Shown one piece after another: positions 8,461-60,010 of a stretch of 64,000 nt of DNA. Each line of letters starts with the position of its first letter. The stretch's first letter is position 1. The DNA comes from a virus. The DNA is taken from positions 1-64,000 of IMG/VR virus record IMGVR_UViG_3300035674_000001. One strand, 5' to 3'. Made by a program: the position numbers and the translations under genes. Under the pieces are notes generated by a model. That model searched no databases, was not told the origin of the DNA, and saw nothing but the letters and a program-made list of their open reading frames with translations.

Positions 8461-9170
8461 TAAAATGTATACCTGATTCTAACTTGATAGCTTCCGTCTA
8501 ATGTGTTGCGCCTGAATATTTGAGGTGTAACTAGATCTATAAAGCTATCTATACTTCCTGCTACATTTTTAGCTATAGCATTTCCATTTTTAATAAAAGC
8601 TAAATACCTTATGTTGTTTAGATCTGCATTCGTTGGATACCAGCTTACAATTCTAGGTACACTAGCAGTAAAGTTTTCGATTGCATTATAAGAGCTAGCG
8701 CCGAATGTTACTGGTTGTCTACTTGATCCTTGGTAGTTTGCTAGTTCATGTCGAATCCAAACCCCCATGTCTCCATCATCTTTACCAAGTGGTTGTTCTG
8801 TTACAACAACTCCTCCAGTGCCTTGAGTAGTAATATCTATAGCCGATCCTGCTGCCGATGGCGTAGTTTTAGTTAGACTCAAAGAAAACTGAGTGGTTGA
8901 TGGCGAAAATACAAAATAAATTGTATCTGCTGGATTACTATTGAATGGCTCTGGTAAAACTCCACCAGCGGCAGCAGATAGTCTAACCCGCATATTAGCA
9001 GGAAAATCATTAGCTATAACAAATGTATTAGCAGAAACGTTAACACTTGCTTGAGGTACTGTTATTTGACTTAGTGCTGCATCTATCAGAGCAACATTAA
9101 ATATGTTTGTTCCATAAAGCAAGTCTAGATTACGAGTTTGCGCATCAACGGGATAAAGTAAATCTGGCAT
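8460..9170 (-). CDS. tail fibre/tip-like structural protein
   Basis: 236 aa. Beta-rich, low-charge N/S/T/V/A composition. Lies in the tail operon. Context only. Confidence 0.4.
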   Translation of the reverse strand: MPDLLYPVDAQTRNLDLLYGTNIFNVALIDAALSQITVPQASVNVSANTFVIANDFPANMRVRLSAAAGGVLPEPFNSNPADTIYFVFSPSTTQFSLSLTKTTPSAAGSAIDITTQGTGGVVVTEQPLGKDDGDMGVWIRHELANYQGSSRQPVTFGASSYNAIENFTASVPRIVSWYPTNADLNNIRYLAFIKNGNAIAKNVAGSIDSFIDLVTPQIFRRNTLDGSYQVRIRYTF

Positions 9171-9232
9171 TGTTTTAATTAACTAGCTGAGCTGAAGTTT
9201 TTGTATTTTAACTTGTTGCAAGCTGATATGAA

Positions 9233-26316: not shown

Positions 26317-27870
26317 TTAATGATTTAATCGACTTGAACCCAGAGGAGCTTTAGCGTTTGCCTGAAATTGTTCAACTTGCTTTTTATAAAGCTCTTCGTC
26401 ATCATCTTCGATATAACCAACCTTGATAAACTTGTCTGTTGGTCGTGACACATTGAAGTTGTCTTGGGTTATTTGTCTTGCCGCTGAAGAGTTGTTGCTT
26501 GAAGAATTGCTAGAAGGTGCAGAATCTTTAGTTTCAGTAACCTGAGGCTGATTTTTATGGGATTGAACTACTTCGGGTTTCCAGCTAGCAACGGCTAATT
26601 GAAATGCATAATCAACCCCAGCATCAGGGGTTGATTCAGTTGGCTTAAGTTCATTGCCGTGTATCTTAGCGATAACCAGTTCTTGTATTTGCCTATCTGA
26701 TAAGCCAGCAAACTTGGTGTTTTCTCCTAATATTTTAGATGCGCTAACTTGCAGATTAACTCGCTTGTCTACAGCAAGTTGAAAAGCTACTGGATCGGGA
26801 TTTAGCGCTGCATCAAGCTTGACCTGTACGCCTGAAATTTGTTGCTTGAGAGAAGTGTTTTCTGTCTCAAGCTCGGTTATACGCTGCGCTTTTTGCTGTA
26901 ACTCTGATTCCCACTTACTCTTGTCAGCTTTTAGCTGCTTATTCTCTGATTCCAAAGAACTAATCAGACTTTCATCTTTCTGAAACTTGTTATTAACAGC
27001 TAGCGCAACAGTTTCGCTGGCTTCTAGCGGCACTCCATTAACAGTCAACTTAGTTGATTTTTCTTGATGTGTAGAGGTAGTCATAGTTGTTAGTGGAATA
27101 GTTGAATTATCTAAGTTAGTTGATTGAGAATCTTGCCTATAAAGTTGAATAGCAATGGGGTACTTAGAGTTTCCTACTTGAATAGCGCCATCATCATCAA
27201 TAGAATCAAAAGCATGGATCTTAGCAAAATTGCCTGCTCTCCCTTTTTTAACTAAACCTATTGAGTTTCCCCGAATATCTCGCTGCTGTCGATTGAATGG
27301 CTCGCCAAACCAGTCGCCTTGAACTTTATATACTTTGGCGATATAGGCAGCAGACAATTGCTTGTAATCTTTGTTAATTGCGTCAATTGCTTCTTTATCA
27401 ATCAACGTGATTCTAATTCTGCCAATACCCCGGTGATAGTCTACATCTTCATGAGTTAATCCTCTCGCTAATTTATCTTTTATCGCATTTTCAGGAAAAA
27501 CTAAACCAGGATGACCTATGGTAACAGGTTTGTTTCTAAACGAGTTCAGGCTCTTAATTACTTCATCTTCGGGTCTATTTTGAATACATACTGAGCCGTC
27601 CCGATCTAGATAAACCTGATTTCCTACACGGCAAAAGCTTCCCCAGAAGGTAGGAAACTTTTCTAGTTCACTGTACTCTGTTTTGCCATTGGGTAAAGGA
27701 AAAAGCTCTTTTGCCGAATCTTGACTCAAAGAATTCCCCAAAGTATCTATTAACCCTTGTCGTGAAACTTCTCCGGTGTACTCCAGATCAATGTCACAGT
27801 AATCAAGCAAGAATTTTGTTTGGTAGCTTTCTTCTGTCGTCACTAGCTTGGCTTTAACCTTCTTAAACAA
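26317..27870 (-). CDS. scaffolding / prohead-core protein (DUF2213-like N-terminus plus coiled coil)
   Basis: 517 aa with a TTG start. N-terminal region contains ...RNKPVTIGHPG...QQRDIRGNSIGLVKKGRAGNFAKIH. A central coiled coil follows (ESENKQLKADKSKWESELQQKAQRITELETENTSLKQQ). Confidence 0.55.
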   Translation of the reverse strand: MFKKVKAKLVTTEESYQTKFLLDYCDIDLEYTGEVSRQGLIDTLGNSLSQDSAKELFPLPNGKTEYSELEKFPTFWGSFCRVGNQVYLDRDGSVCIQNRPEDEVIKSLNSFRNKPVTIGHPGLVFPENAIKDKLARGLTHEDVDYHRGIGRIRITLIDKEAIDAINKDYKQLSAAYIAKVYKVQGDWFGEPFNRQQRDIRGNSIGLVKKGRAGNFAKIHAFDSIDDDGAIQVGNSKYPIAIQLYRQDSQSTNLDNSTIPLTTMTTSTHQEKSTKLTVNGVPLEASETVALAVNNKFQKDESLISSLESENKQLKADKSKWESELQQKAQRITELETENTSLKQQISGVQVKLDAALNPDPVAFQLAVDKRVNLQVSASKILGENTKFAGLSDRQIQELVIAKIHGNELKPTESTPDAGVDYAFQLAVASWKPEVVQSHKNQPQVTETKDSAPSSNSSSNNSSAARQITQDNFNVSRPTDKFIKVGYIEDDDEELYKKQVEQFQANAKAPLGSSRLNH

Positions 27871-28388: not shown

Positions 28389-29298
28389 TATTCAAAGGCA
28401 CAAAATCGGTGCTGTTAAGATACCAGTATCTCCTATTAAAGATGGAGATGTTACTGTTTTAAGGTTAAGCGCCGTTGATATTGATTTGCCAGATATAGGA
28501 TCTAAGGCAATTGAAGAGTTAAAACAGCAAGCTACAACAGCTAAAAAAATTAGCGCCAATCAATTGCAGTATGCACAAGAGCGCTTTAAGATTGAGCAAG
28601 TTATTAAAGAGACAACAAGAAATTTAGAGTTAATTGAAAATGAAACTCGTTACAGAAAAGGAAGAGTAAGGCGTAATTTATTATGGCTAGAAGAAAGATT
28701 AAGCAAATATCCTGAAGAATTTCAAAAAGATGATTTACCAGCACCAAAAAGCTTTTCAGAATTAATTGAAACACGAATCAACTATAAATACAGCTCTGTA
28801 GACGCAGAATTCCGAGCAGCTCGTGTAGAGCGTGATTTAGGAGTAGCTCTTGGAACGTTTTCTTACTATACGCTTAAGCCGTTATTTTTTGCCAATGTCT
28901 ATAAGTCTAAATCTGGAGCAAGTAGCAGCAAAGATAGCAGCGGTTTTAAAAAACTATATGGCACATACAAGAACGAACAAGCTTTTCAGCTTCAATTAAA
29001 AGCATTTCTTTTAGCTTGTGAATTGGCTGGGGTAAGTGCAATACCTAGTCAAGGATGGCGCAAGGATGCCAAGAAGTACAAACCAACTGAATTTTCTAAA
29101 ATAGAACCTTCGCATATACAGCTAGCAGTAAAGACTATTAAGGCAGAGCTAAATATTACTGGTGAAAAGAAGCCTAGAGTTAAAGAATTTACTATCAAAG
29201 AACAAGAATTAGATGCTCGATGCACTCAACTTGAAATGCAACTAGCAGAATGGAAAGAATTTGCTTTGATGCTGCTAACCAACCTAAATCACACTTGA
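28372..29298 (+). CDS. hypothetical protein
   Basis: 308 aa. The ATG overlaps the end of the XRE gene. The 3' end overlaps the portal 3' end by 10 nt. Confidence 0.5.
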   Translation: MTTRFNIQRHKIGAVKIPVSPIKDGDVTVLRLSAVDIDLPDIGSKAIEELKQQATTAKKISANQLQYAQERFKIEQVIKETTRNLELIENETRYRKGRVRRNLLWLEERLSKYPEEFQKDDLPAPKSFSELIETRINYKYSSVDAEFRAARVERDLGVALGTFSYYTLKPLFFANVYKSKSGASSSKDSSGFKKLYGTYKNEQAFQLQLKAFLLACELAGVSAIPSQGWRKDAKKYKPTEFSKIEPSHIQLAVKTIKAELNITGEKKPRVKEFTIKEQELDARCTQLEMQLAEWKEFALMLLTNLNHT

Positions 29299-31160
29299 TT
29301 TTGCGGTGATGATTTACCCGCACCTTGCTCTCCTTGTTGAGCAGAAGATTGCTGTTGAGACTGATATTCTCTAGTGCTTTGGTTCTGTGAATTAGATAAA
29401 GATAACGTTTCGTTGATACGATTTGCTACAACATTTTCATTTACTTCATTGGATAAAGATGCTGCGATGCGCTGATCTTGCAGCATTTTTGTTAGGTCAA
29501 TAGTACTAAAAATATCAACCCCGGTAGCCAAGGCATTGGCTACTCCAAACTGAGTTAAAACTCCTCTGTCTAATAAATACGCAATAGCACGAGACAATAT
29601 TTCTTTTGTCTTTGCTTGCTGTTCTGGCGATTCAACAAAAATTGGCTCTCGTGTAACTTGCCATTTAGTTGGTTCGTTACCGTTTAGCGGGTTAGACTTA
29701 CATGCGTGCAAAATAGGGATTAATTCATCTTCAATTTGTGGCAACATATCTGAGCCTTGGCGAGTGAAAACATAATCACTCCAATCTTGCCGAGACTGAT
29801 TTCCTCCACCAGTATTGTTAGAAACCAGCGCAGAATTTAGCGCATCGCTAGAAGTTCTATTAAGTAGCAAACTTAATGGCAAGTCGCACGAACCCGCTGC
29901 CATTTGCGCTAAATGCTCTAATACTTTTTCTATGTTGGCGTAATTCCTAGAAAGTATTTCATATTTCTCATGCTCTCCATCTAGCGCTAATATGCCTAAT
30001 GCATGGCGCAAAAAAGCGATAGTACGCACATGCTCTTTAACTTGTTCTTTTTTTCCCGCAGCTATTTTTTTGGCGAGATCATGAATAAATAATACAGTCT
30101 GGCTAAAACTTTGCAAGCTAGATGCAATACAGTTTGAGCCTTGAATGAAATTAGTAATAGGGATAAACGCTCTGTCCATTACAGAATATCCCCATCCATT
30201 ATTGATTCGTCGGAGCTTCTTGTTTACTCTTCTACCGTGAAATGCTATTACCCGACTGGCATGAATAATATTATTTCCAGTTCGGCTTGTATTGTCAGCA
30301 CTATTAAAATTAACTTGATAAGTTTCTACCTTGCCATAATCTTTACTTGATGCATCTTGGTTGTAAGAACTAGCAATTAAATCTTCACTGGATAAGACAT
30401 TATAACCGTCTATGTCCCAGAGGCTATCTAAATCAAGCGGCTTGTCTATACCTGTACTGCCATCGTTAGCAAATAGCACAATTCCTGCTCCGCCTTGTTC
30501 TCTAGATTCTTCAAGCGCTTCTTGAATAAATGGCTTGATAGCTTTAAGTTTTTTCTGCATCCAGAGTGTCATTTTTAAGCCAGATTCACCCTGGACTAGC
30601 ATTTCTTCAATGATGCTTTGTAGCTGAACTGAAACAGCATGAAGGTTTGATGTAGGTAGATCTGAAGCTTGACTATTAAAAGTTTGTTCTAGATTAACTG
30701 GATCGCTTAGGCTAAATTCAGATACCCTGCCTTCGACTGAATGAACAGCTTGATTAATTGAACGTTCGATTAATGGTCTGATTTTTTCTAGCCTTGCTTG
30801 AGTTTCCGCGGATAAAATATTAGAATTTGAAGTATTGCATGAATAAGTAATAAACTTACTGCACATTGCAGCAGGCAGTATTTCAACTAAGTTGCCAAAA
30901 ATAAAGCTGTTGTGTCGCCATAGTGTACGCTGCCAGGGTGTTAAATTAACAGGTGAGATTCGCAAAGAGCTAGGGTTAAGCAAGTCTTTCCCAGCTTCTC
31001 CTAGACCAGAATGAAGGTTTACTAGTGCGTTATCGTGTTGAACCTGTTCAATAAAATCAGTGAGTGCATCTTGATGAAACGAAAACTGCTCATCTAATTG
31101 ATCTTGTAGACTAATATCTTTAGGCTCAAATGGATTAGCAAAAGGATTAGATTTAGGCAT
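29289..31160 (-). CDS. portal protein (DUF1073 type)
   Basis: 623 aa. Its size, its pairing with DUF2213/DUF2184-type genes, the core ...NNGWGYSVMDRAFIPITNF... and the Q/S-rich C-terminal tail support the call. Confidence 0.75.
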   Translation of the reverse strand: MPKSNPFANPFEPKDISLQDQLDEQFSFHQDALTDFIEQVQHDNALVNLHSGLGEAGKDLLNPSSLRISPVNLTPWQRTLWRHNSFIFGNLVEILPAAMCSKFITYSCNTSNSNILSAETQARLEKIRPLIERSINQAVHSVEGRVSEFSLSDPVNLEQTFNSQASDLPTSNLHAVSVQLQSIIEEMLVQGESGLKMTLWMQKKLKAIKPFIQEALEESREQGGAGIVLFANDGSTGIDKPLDLDSLWDIDGYNVLSSEDLIASSYNQDASSKDYGKVETYQVNFNSADNTSRTGNNIIHASRVIAFHGRRVNKKLRRINNGWGYSVMDRAFIPITNFIQGSNCIASSLQSFSQTVLFIHDLAKKIAAGKKEQVKEHVRTIAFLRHALGILALDGEHEKYEILSRNYANIEKVLEHLAQMAAGSCDLPLSLLLNRTSSDALNSALVSNNTGGGNQSRQDWSDYVFTRQGSDMLPQIEDELIPILHACKSNPLNGNEPTKWQVTREPIFVESPEQQAKTKEILSRAIAYLLDRGVLTQFGVANALATGVDIFSTIDLTKMLQDQRIAASLSNEVNENVVANRINETLSLSNSQNQSTREYQSQQQSSAQQGEQGAGKSSPQNQV

Positions 31161-34183: not shown

Positions 34184-36139
34184 CTAGCTTTTTATTGCAT
34201 CAAGCCTCTTAATCTCAGACAATGTAAACATCCAGCGAGTACTATCTTGGCTATCAGCATAAGATGCTGCGATGTGAAGCAAGATATCTCGAATTACTGG
34301 ATAATCATTTGGATCTACACGAATAGAATGACCCAGATGAATTGATTCGCTGATACTAGCCTTAAGGAACTCTAGTTTGTTAATTGGAACGCCGCCATGC
34401 AACTGAGCTAGCTGTATTAGATCAGTGTTGCCTACTAGTGCATCTAAATAATCAAATCCTAGCTCATCGGCAGTGAATAGCATCATACACATGTCAAAGA
34501 AATCGGGTGACTTTATCCCACGTCGCAGCATTTCTTTTTTGCTTTCAACTCGAATCTGACCCCTGTCTGTGTAGAAAAACTTCGGTGAGCTTAATTGACC
34601 TCTTAGTTCGGAATGGTAAGGCACTGCTATTAGCTCTTTTAGTGGATGCTGCTTACCTTTGGCAATAAACTCATATGTCTTCTCAAATCTTAGCCGTAGT
34701 CGCCAAGCGCACTCAGCTCTAAGATTCTTGAATATCTCTTTGCTTTCTCTGCCGCCGAACTCATCCCATATCTCGTTGGTGCATTCATAGTTTCCATTGA
34801 AGCCAGCATGTTCAAAGCGATAGTCTGCCGACTCTAGTACACCTGCGATACCAGCACCAACGCCAACATTGTCATAAATGAAGTTGGTTACACTAAATGC
34901 TTGGCAAAGCTCGATTGCTCTCCAAGCTGTCTCAGTTGTACCAGAATCACGCCAAGACTCAATGAGAATCAGGCAGATTCCCTCTCGAACACCAAACACG
35001 TTTTTGCTATTTCCTGAATAAGCTACGTCGAGCGCTCCAATACGAGAAGAACCAGTTACATCGAAAAAGGTCATTCTATTAACTAAGTTAGATCCAACTT
35101 TGGCGTGATAACTATCTTGGTATTCTTCGTGATTGTATTTATCAAGTCCAAGCAATTTACCTAATTGAATAGCAGCATCCACATGAATGGCTGGAATTAA
35201 TAAGTTTTCAGTACCGCCAGAATAATCAAGATTAATTTCTCTAGCAAAGACTACTGGATCAAGCGTCTCTCTATCTTTCTCGTAGTCTTTTTGAGAGTAA
35301 CTCAGATTGTCTTGATAAGTGAAAGTAAAAACAGAATACTTACCAGAGTTTCGTTTAGTAACAAAACTGTTACCTGTTGGATCTTTCGGAGGTGTACTGA
35401 CATAAATGACTGTGTTGGTGTTTTTGACTAATGCAGCATCAACTATATCAGCTCGTGCAATATAAGCGGCTTCATCAACGAAGTAGACTGTATTACGTCC
35501 ACCTCGACCCATTGAGTCGCCACCTTCGCCAGTGATCACGCTGTCATTAGCAGGATTCACAAGGCGCATAAACTTATTGTGCTTTGTCCACTTGAACCCA
35601 CTAGGTAGCATCCACCCCGGCAAGTGCCTTAGAATAATTCTCAGTTTCTCAAAGATGCAATCAGGGTCATCTGAGCGATCTACTAAATCTTCTACCCTAG
35701 AGCCAAATGCAGCCTTAAACCCCGGTTCAAACAACCAAGAATGAAGTGCATACGCACAGGACAAGTAAGTTAATCCTGCTCCTCTAGTTTTTTCAGCTAT
35801 CCCGGATTCTTTGTTAGCTCGACGTTCATCAATCCAGTTTAAATAATCTTTTTGGCGTGGATATAAAACTACAGGAATTAAAGCAGGTTTACTGGGTAAG
35901 TTTCTTGGCTCGTAGAAATAAACCCAGTTGTCGATCCAGTAAGCCTTGTTACGCCTGCACATCTCCATTTCGTAGGCTCTGAGGGTAGGCTTGTCGTTTA
36001 AGTTTTGCCATCGCTCACGTCGCCTAATGAGTAGGTCATTTAACAGGGAAACATTGTTAAAATTAGAACTAGATCGACTCTGATTAGTAGTATCTTGGGT
36101 ATTAGAATTAAATGGCTGATTGGAATATGGCAACGACAT
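34184..36139 (-). CDS. terL: terminase large subunit
   Basis: 651 aa. Walker A-like: EKTRGAGLTYLS. Walker B: NTVYFVDEAAYI. A C-terminal nuclease-type half is present, and the portal gene follows downstream on the same strand. Confidence 0.85.
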   Translation of the reverse strand: MSLPYSNQPFNSNTQDTTNQSRSSSNFNNVSLLNDLLIRRRERWQNLNDKPTLRAYEMEMCRRNKAYWIDNWVYFYEPRNLPSKPALIPVVLYPRQKDYLNWIDERRANKESGIAEKTRGAGLTYLSCAYALHSWLFEPGFKAAFGSRVEDLVDRSDDPDCIFEKLRIILRHLPGWMLPSGFKWTKHNKFMRLVNPANDSVITGEGGDSMGRGGRNTVYFVDEAAYIARADIVDAALVKNTNTVIYVSTPPKDPTGNSFVTKRNSGKYSVFTFTYQDNLSYSQKDYEKDRETLDPVVFAREINLDYSGGTENLLIPAIHVDAAIQLGKLLGLDKYNHEEYQDSYHAKVGSNLVNRMTFFDVTGSSRIGALDVAYSGNSKNVFGVREGICLILIESWRDSGTTETAWRAIELCQAFSVTNFIYDNVGVGAGIAGVLESADYRFEHAGFNGNYECTNEIWDEFGGRESKEIFKNLRAECAWRLRLRFEKTYEFIAKGKQHPLKELIAVPYHSELRGQLSSPKFFYTDRGQIRVESKKEMLRRGIKSPDFFDMCMMLFTADELGFDYLDALVGNTDLIQLAQLHGGVPINKLEFLKASISESIHLGHSIRVDPNDYPVIRDILLHIAASYADSQDSTRWMFTLSEIKRLDAIKS

Positions 36140-39198: not shown

Positions 39199-40179
39199 TC
39201 AATCGGTACAATTGCAAGGCGCATTTTCTTGATCAACAGAAAACACATCTTTAAAAATGCGTTGACCAAGACTGGCATTTTTCTTGAATGTGTGTTTTGT
39301 TTTAGCCTCTAAATCCATCCAATTAGGCAAGCGTTCAGGGTAGATTTTTGTTTGCTCTTTTAGCTCTTCATTGGTCTTGTAAAAGCAGTAGACACAATTA
39401 GAAATTGAGGGAAAAGCATAATCCCAGTTCCGTTTTTCCCAGTAGCAATAAACATCGCTAGAAGTAATCCTCTTTGAATACAGAGGAAATGAGCGAATAC
39501 GCCACTCGGTATTTTTCCATCGATGGCAACCTGCAAACTGACCAATCAAGTCGCAGCAAAAAGAAAACTCAAAACTATCGCAGGAATTAGAGTCTTTTTC
39601 TAATCCTAATGCTCGATAAACTCTTCGAGGTTCGTCGTATCTAAATCCTATTTGAACTTCGATAGACAAAGGGTTCGGAACAAAAGAAAAGTCATTTTCA
39701 GGAATTGCTTTACTTAGGTTTAAGTAAGCATCCCAAAACATTGGTTCATACTTAAGGTATTGAGTGCAGATTCGTGCTTCTGAAGACGGCAGCCTACCCT
39801 TCTTTTCTATTAGCTGCTCAAAAGTTAACTCAGATGCTACCCACCTAATAGGTTGTTGCAACTCTTGTTCAAGTTGTAAAACAACTTTAAGAGAATCATC
39901 AACCTCGTGCGAAGCTTCAAACCAAGGTATGCGCTTTTGGCACTCCCGAAACAATCCTTTGTCTTTTGGCTTTGCGTTAGGATCGCTTGTCAAAACAACA
40001 GCAAATTGGTAGAAATATGGACGCTTATCATTAGGGTTTTTGTTAAGCGCCATATAAGTTGAAGTTTTTCCACTTGAAACAGAAACAACAACTTTATCAG
40101 CAATACCCTCAATTTCAGCTAAGTGACGATCTGCTTGAATCGTTCTTCTATCGTATTCACTTAAGTCGAATAGTGTCAT
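39199..40179 (-). CDS. PAPS-reductase / PP-loop ATP-pyrophosphatase superfamily protein
   Basis: Degenerate PP-loop VVVSVSSGKTSTYM (canonical SGGKDS). ARICTQYLKYEP matches the C...K..P motif of PAPS reductase and DndC. C-terminal Cys cluster: CVYCFYK...CNC. Confidence 0.6.
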   Translation of the reverse strand: MTLFDLSEYDRRTIQADRHLAEIEGIADKVVVSVSSGKTSTYMALNKNPNDKRPYFYQFAVVLTSDPNAKPKDKGLFRECQKRIPWFEASHEVDDSLKVVLQLEQELQQPIRWVASELTFEQLIEKKGRLPSSEARICTQYLKYEPMFWDAYLNLSKAIPENDFSFVPNPLSIEVQIGFRYDEPRRVYRALGLEKDSNSCDSFEFSFCCDLIGQFAGCHRWKNTEWRIRSFPLYSKRITSSDVYCYWEKRNWDYAFPSISNCVYCFYKTNEELKEQTKIYPERLPNWMDLEAKTKHTFKKNASLGQRIFKDVFSVDQENAPCNCTD

Positions 40180-40202: not shown

Positions 40203-42503
40203 TCAGACTTGCTTCAGGTTGGCTTCACCCCAAGCAAACAAATCACCTTGCGCCGATTCTTTTTCAGCACGTCCCATGTTTTTCAGTGCCTCATTGAAAT
40301 AGCTTTCTTTGAGTTCAATGCCAAGGTACTTTCTTGATTGCTTGATTGCTTGGTATCCTGTAGAACCAATACCGTTAAATGGATCAAGCACTAAGTCGCC
40401 AGGATTAGACCATAGCTGGATTGAGCGTTCAATTACCTGGAGCTGAAGAGGTGCAATATGCCTTTCATCACTATCTTCTTTGGCAAACCGACCAGTCAAC
40501 GTGTCCGATGGGTTAATATCCATCCACACAGGCGAAGCATAGCGCTGCCAAACTTCAACACTATTTCGCTGCACGTCACCAACTAACTTGATATCGTCGC
40601 TGCCAGCATAGTAGGTTAATTCACCAGTAATTGGCTCAGGATTGTTTCCTGGTTTACGAAAAACAACAAGGGTATCGGGTATCCCTTGGCGACTCATTGC
40701 ACTATCTTTAACTACTTGTTTATGCAACAGTCCTAGCGCTTTAGTTCGCTGCATAGCTTGCACTGGATTTTTCCAGATGCAAACTTCACTGTGATAAATC
40801 CAGTCTTTTGACTGAAACATACGAATCACGTCACCCCGAAAGTCTCGTAACCCAATGTAGCCATCTCGCGACTTAAGGGTAGGTAGATTCATGAGATGAA
40901 CAGCGCATAATCGACCGGGTATCGTAATGCGATAAAGTTGCTCTACTAAATAATCAAAATGAGCTGCAAACTGCTCATCACCTGTACAGTTACCTATGTC
41001 ACGAACTGAGCTTGAGTACACGTACAGATTAGCAAAGGGGATTGATGTCACTGTTAGATGTATACAGTTATCTGGCAACTTAGTTGTTATTTCAACACAG
41101 TCCCCTAGATAAAGAGTCCAGTCCTGTCCTTGTTTAACAGTTGTTTTGTATTCCATTTCACTTCTTTCTAGTGACATTTGCTGAACTTGAGTTGCCTTTG
41201 CCATTTCGTTTACCATTTGCTTTGCCATCTCATCTGCCTCTGTTTGCTTTCTTTGTAAGTTACGAGCAATAGCGCTTTCTAGCTTGTCGTAAACCAGATA
41301 AACAGTAACGTCACACTTTTGACCAAATCTGTAGCATCGTCCTACTGTCTGATGGAAGCTTTCCCATGAATGATTCAGACCCACAAATGCCATGTTGTGA
41401 CAATTTTGCAGGTTTAAACCAAAGCCAAACATACTTGGCTTACTGATAAGTACTCGCTTCTTACCTGATGTAAAGTCAAGAACTGCCTGCTCTTTATGTT
41501 CGTCAGAATCACTGCCTTTTACTTCTACAGCATCAGGAATCAATTGAGTTAGCAGCTTAGACTCATCATTGAGATCGCACCAAACTAACCATTGCTCGTT
41601 GCTTGGATTAACTAACTTAGCCGTCTCTTCGCATCGTTGCTTGAGTGTTTGTTTTTTGACATGACGCTGCTCACTTAAAGAAGATGCTTCATAGAAGAAT
41701 AATGCGCCATCAGGTGGTTCAATTTGAGTTTCAATGGTATGGTGAATTATTTCCAGATTAGGCAACACATACGCCTTGTCGGTTTCGGTAAAACCTAGGT
41801 CACCAGGACGCCGAAACATCAATGACCAAGATGCTACCCACTCCCAGAATCGAGCTTGAGCATGTTTCTTGAGTCTCCACTGCGATGTTTTCCCGCCATC
41901 GTGGGTAAAAAACATCGCCAGCATTTCTTCGCGCGTTAACGCACCCACCCATTCAGAATGGTTGCCTAGCTCCATGTAGTCGTTTGGTGCAGGGGTAGCC
42001 GTACAGGCTAGCTTATAAGGAGTAGATGCAAAGCTTTCAAGTAGCTCACTAGTTGTTTTGCTCTCAAAGTGTTTGATGCAAGATGACTCATCAAGCACAA
42101 CTCCCGCAAACTGACTAGCATCAAACCTGGCTAGTTTTTCGTAGTTCGTGATAAAGATGTTGCCATTATGATCTGCAATATCTTCTGGGTTAGCAACATA
42201 CTTGACTGAGATGCCAAACTTTTCACCCTCACGAACAGTTTGCTGCGTTACTGCTAGGGGTGCGAGTATTAGTACTTTGCCTCCCGTGTATTTTGCAACG
42301 TGAAAACTCCATTCAAGTTGCATAAGCGTCTTACCTAGTCCTACACCAGCAAATAAACAATACTTGCCTTTGGCTAGTGCAGTTTTAACAGCAAACTGCT
42401 GGAAATCAAACAAGGATGGGTTTAATTTATGTTCTTCAACAGTAAAGCCAGATGGTTTGACTACAATGCGTTTTTGCTCAAGAAAGTCTTGATAATTGCT
42501 CAT
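40203..42503 (-). CDS. SNF2-family helicase fused to a C-terminal beta-class N6A/N4C DNA methyltransferase
   Basis: Helicase motifs: GVGLGKT (I), VVLDESSCIKH (II), ACTATPAPNDYMELG (III), FGFGLNLQ (V), QTVGRCYRFGQ (VI). Methylase motifs: TSIPFA (IV) then LVLDPFNGIGSTG (I). Start ATG 42503 (MSNYQDFLEQK) is preferred; alternatives are 42533 and 42560. Confidence 0.85.
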   Translation of the reverse strand: MSNYQDFLEQKRIVVKPSGFTVEEHKLNPSLFDFQQFAVKTALAKGKYCLFAGVGLGKTLMQLEWSFHVAKYTGGKVLILAPLAVTQQTVREGEKFGISVKYVANPEDIADHNGNIFITNYEKLARFDASQFAGVVLDESSCIKHFESKTTSELLESFASTPYKLACTATPAPNDYMELGNHSEWVGALTREEMLAMFFTHDGGKTSQWRLKKHAQARFWEWVASWSLMFRRPGDLGFTETDKAYVLPNLEIIHHTIETQIEPPDGALFFYEASSLSEQRHVKKQTLKQRCEETAKLVNPSNEQWLVWCDLNDESKLLTQLIPDAVEVKGSDSDEHKEQAVLDFTSGKKRVLISKPSMFGFGLNLQNCHNMAFVGLNHSWESFHQTVGRCYRFGQKCDVTVYLVYDKLESAIARNLQRKQTEADEMAKQMVNEMAKATQVQQMSLERSEMEYKTTVKQGQDWTLYLGDCVEITTKLPDNCIHLTVTSIPFANLYVYSSSVRDIGNCTGDEQFAAHFDYLVEQLYRITIPGRLCAVHLMNLPTLKSRDGYIGLRDFRGDVIRMFQSKDWIYHSEVCIWKNPVQAMQRTKALGLLHKQVVKDSAMSRQGIPDTLVVFRKPGNNPEPITGELTYYAGSDDIKLVGDVQRNSVEVWQRYASPVWMDINPSDTLTGRFAKEDSDERHIAPLQLQVIERSIQLWSNPGDLVLDPFNGIGSTGYQAIKQSRKYLGIELKESYFNEALKNMGRAEKESAQGDLFAWGEANLKQV

Positions 42504-42586
42504 GATGTTTGCTTGCTCATTTGACTTTTTCATCTTAGTGCGATGTAAACTATAAAGCAAGTTGTTTCGTAGGCGGCTTAATTAAA

Positions 42587-43045
42587 ATGAGTAAAGTCTT
42601 ATCAGCAGATTTAATTTCACAAATAAATCAACTAAAGGAGCAAATTAAGCTCTTTTGTGAAGTACAGCCAGGAAAGCAGTGGTATATCAAGAATGAATGG
42701 TTGGGAGACACTTCATTTGTTCATCTTTACCTGAGACGTTCTCTGAGAATGATTGGCAACGCTGATATTATCGACGTGATGCAAGGCTCATCCAATGCAA
42801 TAATCGAGGCGCTAGATATAGCCGCAATATCTGTTCACCCAGATTATCAGCGAAAAGGAATTGGAAGCCAAATAATTAACTATTGCCACGAAATCAATCC
42901 CAAGTCAATGACCTATATTGAGATGGTCAATAATCCTCATTTACAGCAATGGCTACAAAGAAACAATTGGGAAAAGTACACAATTGGAACTACAGGAGGC
43001 GAGCTTACAATAACCAGCTACTTTAAACTCAAGCAGAAGCAATAG
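42587..43045 (+). CDS. GNAT-family N-acetyltransferase
   Basis: Motif A: ISVHPDYQRKGIGSQIINYC. 152 aa. Confidence 0.7.
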   Translation: MSKVLSADLISQINQLKEQIKLFCEVQPGKQWYIKNEWLGDTSFVHLYLRRSLRMIGNADIIDVMQGSSNAIIEALDIAAISVHPDYQRKGIGSQIINYCHEINPKSMTYIEMVNNPHLQQWLQRNNWEKYTIGTTGGELTITSYFKLKQKQ

Positions 43046-43555: not shown

Positions 43556-44044
43556 TTACTCACCTTTGCCTAAACTTGACTTTTTCATATTACTGGACAT
43601 TTTAGCCAAATGAAAGCTTTTAAGTGTTGTTTCTGGATTAGTTAATAGCGCATCACCTCTATGGTAAACAACGGCACCTCCAGTATTAGTACCAGACAAC
43701 TTAGTTAAAGCCTCAAAAAGCTTCTTGCTTTGTTTGTCAGTTAAGTAGAGAGTGGCGGGTTTGCAGCCATAGGGACATTTCATTTTCGGCGCAACATTGC
43801 CAAACAATCGACAAATTAAAGGACGATGTTCGTAAATGGTACATCTACCTTCAACTAAAGCAGAACATGAGCCTTTCGCTTCGTTATAACTGGGAACCTC
43901 TAACCCAGCATCTCTAATAGCATTTGCTTCAGCAGGATAAAGAGGAATAAGTGTACAGCCTGAAGAGCAGTAGCCTTTGCAATTCAATGCTGGTACTTGA
44001 TCGTAAACATCCTTTAGGGTTCTAAGCTTAGGCGGTTTAGTCAT
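43556..44044 (-). CDS. YkgJ-type (UPF0153) cysteine-cluster protein
   Basis: CKGYCSSGC...CSALVEGRCTIYEHRPLICRLFG matches the CxxCxxCC / C.iY..RP..CR.f pattern. Confidence 0.6.
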   Translation of the reverse strand: MTKPPKLRTLKDVYDQVPALNCKGYCSSGCTLIPLYPAEANAIRDAGLEVPSYNEAKGSCSALVEGRCTIYEHRPLICRLFGNVAPKMKCPYGCKPATLYLTDKQSKKLFEALTKLSGTNTGGAVVYHRGDALLTNPETTLKSFHLAKMSSNMKKSSLGKGE

Positions 44045-44191
44045 AGTCCAATAACATAATTGACTTTAGTTGTTAATCCAGTCTAGCTGTTTCTGGCGAG
44101 CTAGTTAGGTTTAGTTATGCTAACAAGAGGTGGCAACATTAAAGACAAGGCTTTTAACTTGACTTTTACGGCATTGAATGTCAGTCTAATA

Positions 44192-44683
44192 ATGAGTAGT
44201 CAACAAAAACAACAAATGGACTCAGACAAAGCATTAGCATATTTACAATCAGAATTCCCAAATCTTACATGGACAAGTGTGTTTGCTAAAGATAAACAAC
44301 GAGGCAGATTGATTGCTAAATTTGCCAACTACTGGGAATTTGAAGTTGATTGTTCTCCTATAGGTTGTATGGCAACTATTACTGCTGGTCACCAAATTAT
44401 ATGTCGATCACCCAACGAAGTAGGCATATCGCTAGAAGATGTGATAAAGGACATTAAAAGTAAGTGGTCAAAGATTGAAAGATCTATGTCTAAACCCATG
44501 CATAGCTTACATGACTCAACATCAGAATCAATGAAATTTACTCATGATGAGCTATTTGCTATACACGATTCATTGGAACAAACAGCATTACTGCTGGATG
44601 GTGATGATTTACCAGAGGGTGAAGATCATCCTCTGGTAAGCGCTTTGAAGAAAACAGCTACTTACTTAAATTTGCAAAACTAG
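44192..44683 (+). CDS. hypothetical protein
   Basis: ATG 44192 (MSSQQKQQ...) is preferred because the upstream ATG 44117 would place a CTTGACTTT box (44158-44166) inside coding sequence. The start is uncertain. Confidence 0.45.
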   Translation: MSSQQKQQMDSDKALAYLQSEFPNLTWTSVFAKDKQRGRLIAKFANYWEFEVDCSPIGCMATITAGHQIICRSPNEVGISLEDVIKDIKSKWSKIERSMSKPMHSLHDSTSESMKFTHDELFAIHDSLEQTALLLDGDDLPEGEDHPLVSALKKTATYLNLQN

Positions 44684-44698: not shown

Positions 44699-44929
44699 AT
44701 GTCAGACTGTCGTCTCAAAGGAAAACCTTTAGAAGTTGAAGAAATCGATAACATCAATCATCTCTGGTTTAATCATGGAGTAGAAAAAAGGATAATAGCT
44801 ATTCGCAAAAACATGAGTCGGACAACTGTAGCTAAGCACATCAAAGCAAGCAAAGAAGAATGGTTTGAATGGAGAAGCATTCACTTGCCACAGAAAACTA
44901 CCGGAGGTAAATTTAATGAGCAAAAATGA
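44699..44929 (+). CDS. small HTH-like DNA-binding protein
   Basis: 76 aa. RKNMSRTTVAKHIKASKEE is a helix-turn-helix-like segment. Confidence 0.4.
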   Translation: MSDCRLKGKPLEVEEIDNINHLWFNHGVEKRIIAIRKNMSRTTVAKHIKASKEEWFEWRSIHLPQKTTGGKFNEQK

Positions 44930-45392: not shown

Positions 45393-47426
45393 ATGCAGCA
45401 ATTAAATCTTGACTTATCAATTCCCAAACAACCTGAAAAAGAGATTGTCTTACACAAATTCCAGGTACGTGCTAAAAAAGAAACTTATCAGCGCATCAAA
45501 GAAGGCTACAAACGTATCTTGGTAATCGCTTTAATGCGTTTTGGAAAAACGTATTTAGCTGGTTGGATGATTCGTGATGCCAACCGCAAAAACAAAAGAT
45601 GTTTGGTGTTGCTTGACCGAGAATGCTTGGTAAGTCAAACCCCTGATGACTACAGAGATTTAGGCTTAGATCCGCTAGTTTACCAGGGTAAGCAAAACAA
45701 AGAGAGTATAGAGCTAAAGACTGCGCCAGTAGTCATTGCCAGTATTCAAACTATCGAAACAAGAATCAGGTTAGCCAAGAAAAAAGGTATTGAGATTACA
45801 GCCAGAGATTTGCTGGGTGACTTTGATGTAATTCATGTAGATGAAGCACATCTTGTAGCTTTCAGGGATGGCTACAAACATATTCAAGATACTTATTTAG
45901 CCAATGGTGCTATCTTCATTGGCTATACGGGTACCATCTGGCGGGTAAATAAGAAAGAGTACATGGGAATGCACTTTGATATTGCCGTCATTGGAGCGCA
46001 ACCGCCGGAGTTAGTTGCAGATGGTCGAGTTGCATGGGGTCGGTTTTTCTGTCCTGGCAGCTATTTTGACTATACAAAGCTAGATGAACGAGAAGGAGAC
46101 TACACTGATAGCTCAGTTGAGAAGCAAGCTGTTACTGAAGAGAACTTAGAAACAGCACTATATAACTTTAAGAAATACTTTGTTGATGCAAATACCAATG
46201 AGGTAAAGCGCATTTCACTAGGATTTTGCGTAACTGTCAAGCACGCTAAAGCTATTTGTGATTATTTTACTCAGGCTGGATATCCTTGTGAATTCTTGAC
46301 TGGCATGACAAAGCGAGAAGAACGACAAGCAATGTACCAGCGACTAAAAGACAAAAAGACTAAGGTGCTTTTCAGTGTAAGTGCTTTGGGTATTGGACTT
46401 AACTTACCATTCGTAGATGGCATCCTGTATCTAAGACCCACTAAGTCACAATCATTATTCTTTCAGTCAGTCTGTCGAGCTGCTACCGCATACCCAGGTA
46501 AAAAGTTCTGGATGTGTCTAGACTTTGGCGATAACTTCGGCACTCGATTTCCGCATCCACTAGCACTACAAGATTATGACATATCTAAACCTAAAAACCG
46601 CAAACACGTAGAAATGTATAAAATATGTCCTGTTGATCGAGGTGGGTGTGGTGAGCAAGTAAGTAAGTTTGCTCGTGTTTGTCCCGAATGTGGATATGAG
46701 TTTGTTGTAGACAAAGAAGAAGAGGAAGAAGAGCTAGATTTAGATCCAGGAGTAATAGAATTAGTAGAAATTCTTTCAGTAGAAGATCAGGCAAGAATCA
46801 AGTGGTTTAGAAAGTTAAGGCGCAATGCCTACCTAGAAGAAACTTCACCGCATGAGCCAACTAAGTTGTTTTATCAAAAATACGGCTTTGAGCCGCCTGA
46901 AGACTGGTATTACAAAGCTTGCTTAGGTAAACGAAAGAATCATTCTGCACAAGCCATAGCAAAGCTACGAAAGTATTTTGCTCATTGGCAAACTACCGAT
47001 TACTGGAGCTGGACTAGTAACCAGATGGTGCTAGAGTTTGGAACGTTACAAAAGCAGCGAGAAGAGCAAGAACGCGAAGAAAGAGAAGCAGAAGCTAAAA
47101 AGCAGCGAGAAGAGAAGAGACGCCAACAAAAAGAGCAGCAAGAGCAATGGCGCAAGCAATACGAAGACTATGTAAACTCTTGGCATAATCAATTTAGAAG
47201 CAGCACTAACCAAGTTCATTGGTGGATGACTCTTTTGGGTATAGATAGGCAAAATACATTACAAGAAGCCAAAAAAGCCTATATGCAACTAGCCAAGAAG
47301 TATCACCCTGACACTAAAGCTTATTCAACAGATATTGCCGACTGGACTGATGAGCAGATTACTGAAAAGATGCAAGAAATTAATAATGCATGGGAAATAG
47401 CAAAAGCTTGCTTGAGCAAAAAGTAA
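45393..47426 (+). CDS. SF2 DEAH helicase with zinc ribbon and C-terminal J-domain (DnaJ-like)
   Basis: Walker A: LMRFGKTYLAG. DEAH box: IHVDEAHLV. Also YTGT and LGIGLNLP...QSVCRA. Zinc ribbon: CPVDRGGCGEQ...CPECGYEF. An E/R/K/Q linker leads to the J-domain LLGIDRQNTLQEAKKAYMQLAKKYHPDT...MQEINNAWEIAK, which carries the HPD tripeptide. ATG 45393. Confidence 0.8.
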   Translation: MQQLNLDLSIPKQPEKEIVLHKFQVRAKKETYQRIKEGYKRILVIALMRFGKTYLAGWMIRDANRKNKRCLVLLDRECLVSQTPDDYRDLGLDPLVYQGKQNKESIELKTAPVVIASIQTIETRIRLAKKKGIEITARDLLGDFDVIHVDEAHLVAFRDGYKHIQDTYLANGAIFIGYTGTIWRVNKKEYMGMHFDIAVIGAQPPELVADGRVAWGRFFCPGSYFDYTKLDEREGDYTDSSVEKQAVTEENLETALYNFKKYFVDANTNEVKRISLGFCVTVKHAKAICDYFTQAGYPCEFLTGMTKREERQAMYQRLKDKKTKVLFSVSALGIGLNLPFVDGILYLRPTKSQSLFFQSVCRAATAYPGKKFWMCLDFGDNFGTRFPHPLALQDYDISKPKNRKHVEMYKICPVDRGGCGEQVSKFARVCPECGYEFVVDKEEEEEELDLDPGVIELVEILSVEDQARIKWFRKLRRNAYLEETSPHEPTKLFYQKYGFEPPEDWYYKACLGKRKNHSAQAIAKLRKYFAHWQTTDYWSWTSNQMVLEFGTLQKQREEQEREEREAEAKKQREEKRRQQKEQQEQWRKQYEDYVNSWHNQFRSSTNQVHWWMTLLGIDRQNTLQEAKKAYMQLAKKYHPDTKAYSTDIADWTDEQITEKMQEINNAWEIAKACLSKK

Positions 47427-47520: not shown

Positions 47521-48312
47521 CTATCTAAGTAATTCAACTCGCTCAACAGGATCAGATTCAACCTTTGCCTGACCGATAACTAAGTTAGTTCCTTCAACTC
47601 GCTCCCACGAGAATCTTATCAACACCCACCAACCCCAGCTCATCTTGATGCGTGCCACTTGCTCAAAGCACTTGCTGCCAACATAAAGAAATTGCTCTCG
47701 CTTGTACAGTAAGTCATCAGGGTGCCAGTCGTCAGATGTATCTCGCATAATGGCGGTTCTCATGTCTTCAACACTCTTTTCATTAAAGCCAAACATCTGC
47801 ACACTAGCTTTATTTATCCCAAGCTGTATTGTTTTTAATTCACCATTATTTAATTCACCATTATTAGTGGTATATGGTAAAACCAATCCCATTGGTTCTT
47901 CACTTTCTCGCATTCGGTCAATCTGATATTCAAGTGTTTCGGTTCGGTCAAACTGACCACCCAGCCATACAAAAGGTTTACTTGGTTGATTGCCTTCGTT
48001 GTTTTCCATCATTGTTTTTGTCCTATTCTCACGAGTAGCTACACTTTGCTGCAAAACATTGGCATTGCTGGCGTCTTGAGATAGTTCATCAAATCGAACT
48101 AACAACTCAAATGTTTCGTATTTTCCCTCAACAACGGCGGACTCTAGGTTCATTCTCTTAGCAATTCCAGTTAAGCGCCTATTGCAACTGGCAATAAACT
48201 CCCATGCAGAATCTCTATCTTCTAGTGCAGGAAATGGAAAGTAAATTTTACTTCCTTCTATTTTGAACTGGGTTTGCATTAGGCAAAAATCTAATGAGTC
48301 TAATCCCTGCAT
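47521..48312 (-). CDS. hypothetical protein
   Basis: 263 aa. The ATG overlaps the upstream gene's end. Confidence 0.5.
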   Translation of the reverse strand: MQGLDSLDFCLMQTQFKIEGSKIYFPFPALEDRDSAWEFIASCNRRLTGIAKRMNLESAVVEGKYETFELLVRFDELSQDASNANVLQQSVATRENRTKTMMENNEGNQPSKPFVWLGGQFDRTETLEYQIDRMRESEEPMGLVLPYTTNNGELNNGELKTIQLGINKASVQMFGFNEKSVEDMRTAIMRDTSDDWHPDDLLYKREQFLYVGSKCFEQVARIKMSWGWWVLIRFSWERVEGTNLVIGQAKVESDPVERVELLR

Positions 48313-48803
48313 TTATTTGCCTCCTTGTTTGAATGAATTAATTGAACAACTGAGCTAATTTGCTCTATCGGTATATCAAGAGCTTTGGACACTTTTAATG
48401 CCTCTAAGCTATCTAGCGGATCACCATTAAACAACTTAGTTATCAATTCGGGATATTCAACAGCAGATTTACTTGACCGAATAACCCTAGGCTTGTTCTT
48501 CACTAACCCTATTGCGCTAGCTGCAATTTCCAGCAAGCTCTCTACCGAAAACCAATGTAGCTCTCTAAGTACATCAGCGAAAGTCAACGGCTTAAGTCGA
48601 GCCGTTGACTCAACAGAAGAGCTGGGTAAAATGCCTCGTGACCATCGCTCTATGAGTTCAGTGATAGAACATCGATTTTGAGTTGCAAGCGCTTCAAGAT
48701 TTGATTTACACGTCTGGGTGACTTTTAGGTTTAACCGGGTATTTTTTGGTTCACCCCACTCTTCTCCTTGTCCTAGTGCTGATATTTTGGTCTTTTTCCC
48801 CAT
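48300..48803 (-). CDS. ribbon-helix-helix-like DNA-binding protein (tentative)
   Basis: N-terminal RLNLKVTQTCKSNLEALATQNRCSITELIERW fits a beta-strand - helix - helix (CopG/Arc) pattern. It faces a spacer containing an inverted repeat. Confidence 0.35.
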   Translation of the reverse strand: MGKKTKISALGQGEEWGEPKNTRLNLKVTQTCKSNLEALATQNRCSITELIERWSRGILPSSSVESTARLKPLTFADVLRELHWFSVESLLEIAASAIGLVKNKPRVIRSSKSAVEYPELITKLFNGDPLDSLEALKVSKALDIPIEQISSVVQLIHSNKEANKCRD

Positions 48804-58498: not shown

Positions 58499-60010
58499 AT
58501 GTCAGAAAAATTAGAAGTAAAATACATTCCTCTTAGTCAGGCTGTGCTACTGGAGATAAATCCCAAAAAGCATGATATGGGTGGCTTAATAGAATTAATT
58601 AAGTTACATGGCTTTAAAGATCCGCCAAAGTGGGAACCGCAACTCAATAACGGCAACGGTGGCATCGTAGAAGGCAATGGCAGAATAGAGGCTTTGTCTG
58701 TCATGTATGGCATGAAAGAAGACAAGCCTAGGGGTATCTTGGTCAATTCTGAAACAAACGAATGGCTAGTACCTGTACTGTTTGGGGTAAATTCTGAGAG
58801 TGAACAAGCAGCGCTGGCTTATTCTATTAGCCATAACGTATCTACGATGGCTGGCGGAGATTTTGAGCTGAGTGATTACTTAAAGCTTTATGACCAAGAA
58901 GAATTTATTGATTTAGCTATTAACTTAGCCGAACAAGATTTCTATGCCTTGCCATTTGATGGTGATGACATAGACAGCTTGAAAGCCATTCGTGAGTCTT
59001 GGTTTAAAGACAACCAGCAGGTTACAGAAGAAGATGACTCTGAAGATCTAGATGAGCTTGAGAGTGACATTAGCGAGCTAGACAACACTCTAAGCGAATC
59101 AGAAATAAAATCACGGGTAAACAAAGGCGAGTTGTGGCAGGTTCGCGCAGCAGATTCAACTCACTTGATTATGTGTGGTGATTGTCGGGACTTTGCTGAT
59201 GTATACAAGCTCATAGGTCAAAGAGAAGTGAATCTTGTTTTTACTTCTCCTCCGTATGCATCGCAAAGAAAGTACGATGAGTCATCTGGATTTAAGCCAA
59301 TTAAGCCTAATGAATACTTAACTTGGTTTAAATCTGTTCAATTGAATTTGCACAAGTTCTTAGCAAAAGATGGCAGTTACTTTCTTAATATCAAATCTCA
59401 CGTAGAAGAAGGGAAAAGAAACCTTTATGTAAATAAGCTGGTAATTGCTCATGCAGAGGATTGGCACTGGCACTTTATTGATGAGTTTTGTTGGACTAAA
59501 TCAGGAATGCCAGGTAGTTGGAAAAATAGGTTTAAGAACGGTTGGGAACCTGTTTTTCACTTTGCATTAACTGACGATATTAAGTTTAGACCCGATAACG
59601 TCTTGCGTAAGCCAGAAGGAGGAAAAGCGAAAGTAAAATTTGATGCTGTCAAAGATAACGTCAACTCTGATTATTGGTTTCATTCTAATGATTCCAAAGA
59701 ACTAGAAGGCGCGTTACCCAGCAACGTGATCAGTGTCAACTCAATGGCACTAGACAATAAAGTACTGGGTAACAAAAAGTTAGGACACGCTGCACCGTTC
59801 CCAGTTGCTTTACCTGATTTCTTTATCAGAGCATTTAGTGATGTTAATGACTGGGTATTCGAGCCATTTGCTGGTTCAGGTACGGTCGCTATTGCATCGC
59901 ATCGTAACCGACGAAACTCACTTAATATGGAAATCTCGCCAGGATACTGCAACTATATCCTAACGAGATTAGAAAAAGAAACAGGCTCTAAAGCTGAGTT
60001 AGTTAATTAG
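58499..60010 (+). CDS. ParB-like N-terminal domain fused to an N6A/N4C DNA methyltransferase
   Basis: ParB/nuclease-like N-terminus (IPLSQAVLLEINPKKHD...IVEGNGRIEAL). Methylase motif IV: VFTSPPYASQ. Motif I: VFEPFAGSGTVAIA. Confidence 0.85.
   Translation: MSEKLEVKYIPLSQAVLLEINPKKHDMGGLIELIKLHGFKDPPKWEPQLNNGNGGIVEGNGRIEALSVMYGMKEDKPRGILVNSETNEWLVPVLFGVNSESEQAALAYSISHNVSTMAGGDFELSDYLKLYDQEEFIDLAINLAEQDFYALPFDGDDIDSLKAIRESWFKDNQQVTEEDDSEDLDELESDISELDNTLSESEIKSRVNKGELWQVRAADSTHLIMCGDCRDFADVYKLIGQREVNLVFTSPPYASQRKYDESSGFKPIKPNEYLTWFKSVQLNLHKFLAKDGSYFLNIKSHVEEGKRNLYVNKLVIAHAEDWHWHFIDEFCWTKSGMPGSWKNRFKNGWEPVFHFALTDDIKFRPDNVLRKPEGGKAKVKFDAVKDNVNSDYWFHSNDSKELEGALPSNVISVNSMALDNKVLGNKKLGHAAPFPVALPDFFIRAFSDVNDWVFEPFAGSGTVAIASHRNRRNSLNMEISPGYCNYILTRLEKETGSKAELVN

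Follow-up and report, generated by a model that had tools for sequence, protein, structure and literature searches.

A predicted RadD-like SF2 helicase with a built-in J-domain in a tailed phage or prophage

Closest described systems

J-domain proteins are known to be modular, and J-domains have been described both in phage proteins (Rki) and, joined to a superfamily 3 (SF3) helicase, in a viral protein, the large T antigen. Here, we describe a gene of IMG/VR virus record IMGVR_UViG_3300035674_000001 whose product joins a RadD-like core of helicase superfamily 2 (SF2) to a C-terminal J-domain, a pairing that, by the literature searched, is apparently new. The gene lies in the stretch of 64,000 nucleotides that was analyzed (positions 1 to 64,000 of the record, hereafter the window), which belongs to a tailed phage or prophage because terminase, portal and head protease genes are present, in keeping with the initial annotation of this DNA, a reading of the letters and open reading frames (ORFs) that had reported a helicase-J fusion in a tailed phage.

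The described protein closest to the core is Escherichia coli RadD (YejH; PDB 6jde, 7r7j, and 8h5y), an SF2 DNA-repair ATPase that shares with the phage protein two RecA-like domains, a zinc ribbon and a helical C-terminal region, the two aligning by predicted fold over 440-507 columns (Foldseek). According to the RadD structure paper, its zinc ribbon follows RecA domain 2, which is also the place of the ribbon in the phage protein. The ATPase of RadD is stimulated by SSB (single-stranded DNA-binding protein), and R21, R49, and R145 form a pocket for the SSB C-terminal tail (PMC10238739). The phmmer alignment of the phage protein to RadD starts from residue 35 of the latter, has gaps around R49 and is too poor for mapping the residues of this pocket. 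The two proteins differ in that identity is only ~20%, RadD has no J-domain, the middle domain of the phage protein has no match among solved structures (Foldseek against PDB), and its motif VI is altered.

Polyomavirus large T antigen is alike in that a J-domain and a DNA helicase are combined in one viral protein, and the J-domain of the simian virus 40 (SV40) protein both recruits the Hsp70 of the host and promotes replication of the viral DNA (PMC13254874). However, the J-domain of large T antigen is N-terminal and is accompanied by an origin-binding domain and a hexameric SF3/AAA+ replicative helicase, whereas the phage family combines a RadD-like SF2 core with a C-terminal J-domain or, in a sister clade, with an internal one. 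No T antigen family was found among the Pfam and PDB phmmer matches of the phage protein, and the resemblance is one of analogy, not homology. Rki of the T4-related phages RB16, RB42, and RB43, like other phage class C J-proteins (surveyed by Barriot et al., 2020), is likewise a phage J-domain protein with the His-Pro-Asp (HPD) tripeptide and a presumed action on host DnaK (PMC3486835), from which the protein described here differs in being a 677 amino acid multidomain DNA enzyme. In phages lambda and P1, the O-P-DnaB and RepA complexes, respectively, are remodelled by host DnaK, DnaJ, and GrpE (PMC8215388). The likeness lies in the Hsp70 remodelling of a DNA-bound complex during phage replication, a dependence on DnaK being putative for the present phage; the difference is that host DnaJ acts in trans on those complexes, whereas here the J-domain is the phage's own and forms part of a DNA enzyme. 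The initial annotation had drawn both the lambda and the large T antigen analogies. Both concern another kind of helicase, since the core is RadD-like SF2 and the phage has its own DnaB-like helicase.

Among phage genomes, the closest match in the INPHARED collection searched is g36 of Cylindrospermopsis phage Cr-LKS4 (OQ625504; L011 6022-7755), which is 28% identical across aa 12-550. Core, zinc ribbon and middle domain are shared with the window protein, as is a J-like C-terminal segment of the WWxIL...AY type (INWWDILEVPKL...LLNFAIDEA; WWDILEV...), but g36 lacks both the HPD and the long charged linker and is annotated only as 'DNA/RNA helicase superfamily II'. This protein represents a natural 'J-dead' comparator in a culturable phage.

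Domain architecture of the helicase-J protein

Our analysis assigned a J-domain to the C-terminus of the protein, where the initial annotation had placed one at about 47205-47426, a span that agrees with the one in Table 1. By sequence and predicted fold, this is a genuine J-domain, because the Pfam score lies above the gathering score, the HPD is present and the predicted fold superposes on J-domains. Specifically, Pfam DnaJ (PF00226), the model against which the initial annotation had proposed to check the C-terminus, gives a significant match at aa 614-669 (36.2 bits against a gathering cut-off of 27.8; E = 6.6e-9), and the NCBIfam DnaJ, DjlA, and TopJ models also match this region locally. 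A phmmer search of the PDB returned 32 solved J-domains at E <=0.01, with DNAJA3 (7e-7) as the best match, followed by DNAJC24 and then by E. coli DnaJ and others. The AlphaFold prediction contains helix I (610-615), helix II (623-636), the HPD, a long loop and helix III (653-674), the loop being unusually long and resembling that of DNAJC24. Predicted local distance difference test (pLDDT) values are 79-93 in the J region, and the mean for the C-terminal model is 82. Every one of the top Foldseek PDB matches of this model (41/41) is a J-domain-containing entry, and comparison with E. coli DnaJ bound to DnaK (5nro_B) gives a template modelling (TM) score of 0.75 and a root-mean-square deviation of 2.6 Å.

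On a hidden Markov model (HMM) built from the C-termini of the family, three E. coli proteins (DnaJ, CbpA, and DjlA) and human DNAJB1 reach 54-60 bits, with E. coli DnaJ at 57. A chance or low-complexity match was considered and ruled out, as the match lies downstream of the charged linker, exceeds the Pfam cut-off, and canonical J-domains reach such scores on the family HMM. In E. coli DnaJ, residues Y25, K26, H33, P34, D35, and F47 are reportedly essential. In a by-eye alignment with the DnaJ sequence, Tyr630 of the phage protein aligns with Tyr25, the HPD is intact and Met660 stands at the F47 position; the helix II lysines K627, K628, K635, and K636 are retained.

The motor core has the features of an SF2 protein, namely ResIII and Helicase_C domains, the GKT, DEAH, and TGT motifs, and a motif VI that is present though divergent. 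Residues G51, K52, D150, E151, and H153 are each conserved in at least 90% of 150 relatives, and the same holds for all four cysteines of the zinc ribbon. The best solved-structure match to the core is E. coli RadD, both by phmmer (E = 1e-12) and by Foldseek of the predicted fold (E = 4e-18). The best NCBIfam model is also that of RadD (NF053632), with 74.7 bits against an equivalog cut-off of 720 and only aa 225-381 covered. Since this score is far under the cut-off and the match is partial, the sequence and predicted fold identify the core as RadD-like, a distant relative of RadD and not an orthologue.

The ribbon consists of the pair C412-x6-C419 (CPVDRGGC) followed by C430-PE-C433 (CPEC). 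The initial annotation had described a CxxC...CxxC ribbon: a four-cysteine ribbon is indeed present and its second pair is CxxC, but the first pair is C-x6-C. Its description of a DEAH SF2 core followed by a highly charged E/R/K/Q linker was borne out in full, with 74% E/D/K/R/Q across aa 554-603. Between ribbon and linker are an acidic segment and a helical middle domain. The latter has pLDDT values mostly of 70-93, and its residues P486, W505, E548, and F549 are invariant in alignment A1; when the C-terminal model was compared with the PDB by Foldseek, no solved structure matched aa 463-549, all significant matches being J-domains. The linker is a single 52-residue helix in both the full-length and the C-terminal model (552-603 corresponding to 112-163 of the latter). 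Its composition and AlphaFold prediction would be compatible with an ER/K single alpha-helix and also with a coiled coil or dimerisation. A long charged linker is confined to the window protein and its 65%-identical homologues, and shorter linkers are found elsewhere in the family.

The start codon is ATG, giving the 677 amino acid product, with a possible alternative TTG seven codons upstream at 45372. The ATG is favored because a 65%-identical homologue (P0002) begins MQQL..., like the ATG form.

Table 1. Features of the helicase-J gene and other genes of the window (positions in the window; aa, residues of the 677 amino acid protein)
Feature	Position	Strand	Basis or remark
Helicase-J gene, complete	45393..47426	+	ORF list; 677 codons and stop; PHROG phrog_16 'DNA helicase', E 7e-70
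RecA-like domain 1, aa 18-182	45444..45938	+	Pfam ResIII, E 9e-16
Walker A GKT, aa 51-53	45543-45551	+	Motif in RecA-like domain 1
DEAH, aa 150-153	45840-45851	+	Motif II in RecA-like domain 1
RecA-like domain 2, aa 274-364	46212..46484	+	Pfam Helicase_C, E 1e-11
Motif VI QSVCRAAT, aa 358-365	46464-46487	+	Divergent from family consensus QxxGRGxR
Four-cysteine zinc ribbon, C412/C419/C430/C433	46626..46691	+	Pfam zinc-ribbon models match sub-threshold
Acidic segment, aa 439-461, includes EEEEEEE	46707..46775	+	Predicted disordered; pLDDT <50 in both models
Helical middle domain, aa 463-549	46779..47039	+	AlphaFold, five helices; family-specific; ends in conserved LEFG
E/R/K/Q-rich linker, aa 552-603	47046..47201	+	AlphaFold, one continuous helix, about 78 Å long
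J-domain, aa 609-676	47217..47420	+	Pfam DnaJ, PDB phmmer, Foldseek
HPD tripeptide, aa 638-640	47304-47312	+	Directly after predicted helix II
Protein with sigma-factor-like C-terminus	12113-12832	-	
Erf-like single-strand annealing protein	12930-13967	-	
DnaB-like replicative helicase	14896-16308	-	
Head protease	26317-27870	-	
Portal	29289-31160	-	
Large terminase	34184-36139	-	
PAPS-reductase-like protein	39199-40179	-	phrog_424
SF2/SNF2-type helicase fused to N6/N4 DNA methyltransferase	40203-42560	-	785 aa
Small GNAT acetyltransferase	42587-43045	+	Between helicase-methylase and J-helicase genes
CxxCxxCC zinc- or iron-chelating domain protein	43556-44044	-	PF03692; between helicase-methylase and J-helicase genes
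ParB-like N-terminus fused to N6/N4 DNA methyltransferase	58499-60010	+	

Family distribution and genomic context

In a search of 1.84 billion cluster representatives with a profile made from eight relatives, many of the matches run end to end, including the J region. In a Pfam scan that covered the best 75 of 150 representatives of 50%-identity clusters, DnaJ was found in 30 of the 75 (best E = 6e-15). The database search for other helicase-J architectures that the initial annotation had suggested therefore gave a positive answer, both with these clusters and with a clade in which the J-domain is internal (see below). Sorting of 157 sequences with the family J HMM distinguished 36 with HPD, 4 with an altered triad (e.g., QPD or HPE), 17 that are J-like without HPD and 100 with none. 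An 'HPD' match in P0101 from this screen was discarded, as by eye it sits in the middle domain and not in a J-domain.

The closest homologues are 65% identical to the window protein and include a protein from a Phormidium metagenome-assembled genome annotated as 'DEAD/DEAH box helicase family protein'. The fusion is kept at 65%, 36%, and 27% identity in independent assemblies, as well as in the isolate genomes of Calothrix PCC 7103 and Lyngbya PCC 8106, whose members are publicly annotated only as DEAD/DEAH helicases. Because it is conserved across independent assemblies, isolate genomes and 30 of the 75 clusters, the sequence comparisons identify the fusion as being under selection, and an assembly or frameshift artefact was ruled out on the same conservation. 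In the species-representative genome collection, all taxonomically named genome matches reaching into the J-domain are from filamentous cyanobacteria (Calothrix PCC 7103, Lyngbya PCC 8106, Crinalium, Microcoleaceae, and others), whereas planctomycete and other relatives align to the core only; one further J-reaching match (L023) is labelled only 'uncultured bacterium'. The Calothrix protein scores 50.5 bits with DnaJ. The Lyngbya sp. PCC 8106 homologue (L019 7959-10130) scores 30.3 bits and has HPE instead of HPD; it extends ~120 residues past the J-domain, and the next gene encodes a 1125 amino acid TPR-CHAT protein. The family, as its sequences indicate, is present in cyanobacteria, cyanophages and other mobile elements, with the fusion carried by dozens of related elements. 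Some family helicases also contain inteins: P0009 has a Hint domain at its Walker A site, P0241 has homing-endonuclease domains, and P0137 is a further case.

In a rough neighbor-joining tree of the core, HPD-bearing, degenerate and J-less forms are interspersed in one clade, suggesting that a C-terminal J-domain was ancestral and decayed repeatedly. The internal-J forms occupy a separate clade of this tree. Six representative clusters that lack a C-terminal J-domain (P0142, P0145, P0149, P0161, P0170, and P0234; alignment A4; loci L172 and L173) have an insert of ~100 residues between motif II (DExH) and motif III of RecA1, which contains a J-domain with HPD (for example, LGVEPPCTLVDVKKAYKEKAIAAHPD...MQQINASWDFI); in P0180 and P0201, this insert is present but lacks the HPD. 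Searching with these sequences uncovered a large cyanobacterial subfamily (Okeania, Coleofasciculus, Trichocoleus, and Aerosakkonema), some members of which carry recorded DnaJ matches. Relocation of the C-terminal J-domain within the family was considered as the origin of the inserts and found no support, as they score 21-38 bits on the C-terminal J HMM and are thus less similar to it than the E. coli and human J-domains (54-60 bits). Given the separate clade and these low scores, a second, independent acquisition is suggested as the simpler reading. Because a J-domain would then have been joined to the same helicase family by two routes, this convergence may be regarded as the strongest argument, on sequence, for a functional link between the helicase family and Hsp70.

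We also compared gene neighborhoods across 18 loci of the family. In 10 of them, the helicase gene adjoins a large gene encoding a Prim-Pol-containing protein (7 loci: L012, L014, L020, L009, L017, L023, and L172) or a DUF3987 primase-helicase (3 loci: L007, L013, and L173), and this linkage holds both with and without a J-domain. In Calothrix, helicase-J is preceded, in this order, by genes for an HTH_36 protein, DnaB and PrimPol and by one unknown gene, and in Lyngbya, PolA and an HTH_36 protein are encoded upstream of helicase-J. The P0004 locus encodes an intein-bearing ribonucleotide reductase, KilA-N, MazG, a cytosine methylase and RNase HII, and locus L172, with an internal-J form, encodes MazG, ThyX, a beta clamp, a cytosine methylase and a UL9-like helicase. 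In L001, the neighboring ribonucleotide reductase (19-4305) has an intein, as several of the family helicases themselves do. Since these neighbors are primase-helicase, DnaB, polymerase and nucleotide genes, the family appears to be part of the modules with which cyanophages and other mobile elements replicate their DNA and metabolize nucleotides.

A synteny comparison of the window with 14 related loci matched nothing beyond the helicase itself, a DnaB (in L012) and one small ORF, and no homologue of the recurrent Prim-Pol, DUF3987 or HTH_36 neighbors was found in the window. The genes adjoining the J-helicase (44117-44683, 44699-44929, 47521-48312, and 48300-48803) gave no match to a Pfam or PHROG family. 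The helicase-methylase fusion gene is located on the opposite strand, about 2.8 kb upstream, and a separate comparison of neighbors paired it with a homologous fusion (7536-9833) that lies directly upstream of the internal-J helicase in L172, an unrelated metagenomic phage contig; the helicase-methylase and J-helicase genes may constitute a recurrent pair. The genes for the Erf-like, DnaB-like and sigma-factor-like proteins form a replication/recombination cluster ~30 kb from the J-helicase gene. Lysozyme and M23 peptidase domains are also encoded in the window, and with its ParB-methyltransferase fusion and PAPS-reductase-like protein the phage seems to be rich in DNA-modification genes.

Regarding novelty, a full-text literature search found no phage or cyanobacterial SF2/RadD-like helicase-J fusion, although a bare architecture listing for cyanobacterial genomes may exist in tables (Barriot et al., 2020; Malinverni et al., 2023); the main text of Malinverni et al. 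(2023) does not mention helicases. The initial annotation had noted no earlier description of the fusion, which is right insofar as no published description was found; the protein is, however, no one-off, since members of the family are present in public genomes, where they are annotated only as helicases.

Proposed function and rival explanations

The reading that we favor, and hold to be probable although far from secure, is that of a class C J-domain protein in which a RadD-like SF2 ATPase or DNA translocase serves as the targeting module, so that DnaK is recruited to the site of the helicase in an HPD-dependent manner. By analogy, the helicase body would place the protein on phage DNA intermediates or on replication/recombination complexes, and the J-domain, on a spacer of up to about 8 nm, would dock ATP-bound host DnaK. 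The HPD would then trigger ATP hydrolysis, upon which DnaK would clamp a nearby protein segment and thereby remodel, release or activate the DNA-bound complex. The docking and clamping steps are proposed because class C J-proteins generally work in this way, as do host DnaJ and DnaK on lambda O-P-DnaB and P1 RepA (PMC8215388) and the T antigen J-domain in SV40 replication (PMC13254874). Candidate clients would be the assembly of the helicase itself, a partner complex such as that of a primase-helicase or of DnaB, a roadblock protein, or an initiator. Since the phage encodes its own DnaB-like helicase, the J-helicase is probably an accessory enzyme, with a role in replication or recombination, and not the replicative helicase.

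Several observations weigh against this reading. Regarding the motor, E. coli RadD has no known helicase activity (PMC10238739), and unwinding by the phage protein is therefore not to be assumed. In motif VI of the window protein, two residues with at least 90% conservation in the family are replaced (G361->C and R365->T), which may have weakened its ATPase; R365 is retained in the 65%-identical homologues. Regarding the J-domain, helix IV is absent, the protein ending after helix III, and in the by-eye alignment Met631 stands at the position of DnaJ Lys26. In the family, about 20 clusters with a J-like C-terminus and the cultured phage Cr-LKS4 lack the HPD and many other members have no J-domain at all; with so many such members, the family is able to work without activating DnaK, and by this comparison of sequences DnaK activation is not essential to the helicase family as a whole. 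Finally, in the window the J-helicase gene adjoins neither DnaB nor primase, and its nearest neighbors have no recognizable function.

As a rival explanation, the J-like fold could serve mainly for structure or protein binding, with a vestigial Hsp70 function and an HPD that has simply not yet decayed. HPD-less J-like proteins are a recognized class (type IV; PMC13254874), Cr-LKS4 is viable in culture with its HPD-less form, and the HPD-less and altered triads (17 and 4) are interspersed with HPD forms in one clade. We nevertheless consider vestigiality quite unlikely, given that the HPD and the KxAYxxLAxxYHPD signature are retained in 36 of the 157 sequences across about 27-65% identity, that the J consensus of the family is nearly canonical (57 bits for E. 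coli DnaJ) and that the independent internal inserts also keep the HPD. Alternatively, the J-domain might act in cis, with the helicase as the only client: the recruited DnaK would help it to fold or assemble, or would switch it, for example out of an autoinhibited or oligomeric state. The late addition of J-domains in evolution 'to provide chaperone power' has been discussed (PMC8215388), and the disordered or extended segments close to the J-domain (aa 439-461 and the linker, 552-603) would be possible DnaK substrates. Yet there are relatives that share the core and middle domain but lack a J-domain or HPD, and these evidently fold and persist, which makes purely cis action unlikely. In addition, DnaK prefers hydrophobic residues, in which the linker and the acidic segment are poor.

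A role in host takeover, in which the J-domain would engage or titrate DnaK to alter the stress response or free the chaperone for phage folding, and fusion to a helicase would only ensure early co-expression, has a precedent in Rki, the one characterized phage J-protein, which acts on DnaK to stabilize sigma32 (PMC3486835, PMC13254874). The lack of replication annotation among the nearest neighbors of the window gene would fit such a role, but a single helicase family retains the J-domain at two different insertion points, which implies that the physical link matters. Furthermore, cyanobacterial heat-shock control is unlike the sigma32-DnaK circuit, and of all the explanations weighed here this is the one to which we give the least credence. 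A further proposal, which by analogy we regard as possible but doubtful, is that the protein is the bacterial-virus counterpart of the chaperone function of T antigen: DnaK would be fired at the replication-initiation or restart complex of the element (primase-helicase or DnaB together with an initiator), replacing a lambda-style dependence on host DnaJ, the J-domain would have been captured twice, a sign of strong selection for the coupling of Hsp70 to this motor, and the HPD-less forms would reflect later rewiring.

The fusion suggests that chaperone recruitment is built into the DNA replication or repair machinery of these elements. J-domain proteins decide where Hsp70 acts, and a J-domain on the DNA motor of a phage or mobile element would, if confirmed, constitute a new targeting class. 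The phage J-proteins surveyed to date are J-domain-only, so that this one would be the first with several domains, and it would represent a parallel in prokaryotes to polyomavirus large T antigen. Our analysis also flags a large, unannotated family of RadD-like helicases tied to primase-helicase genes. Its natural variants (HPD, HPD-less, J-less, and internal J), including the HPD-less form in the culturable phage Cr-LKS4, allow clean comparisons, and the family makes it possible to examine whether host DnaK is required by cyanophages for replication or recombination, and which complex it would remodel.

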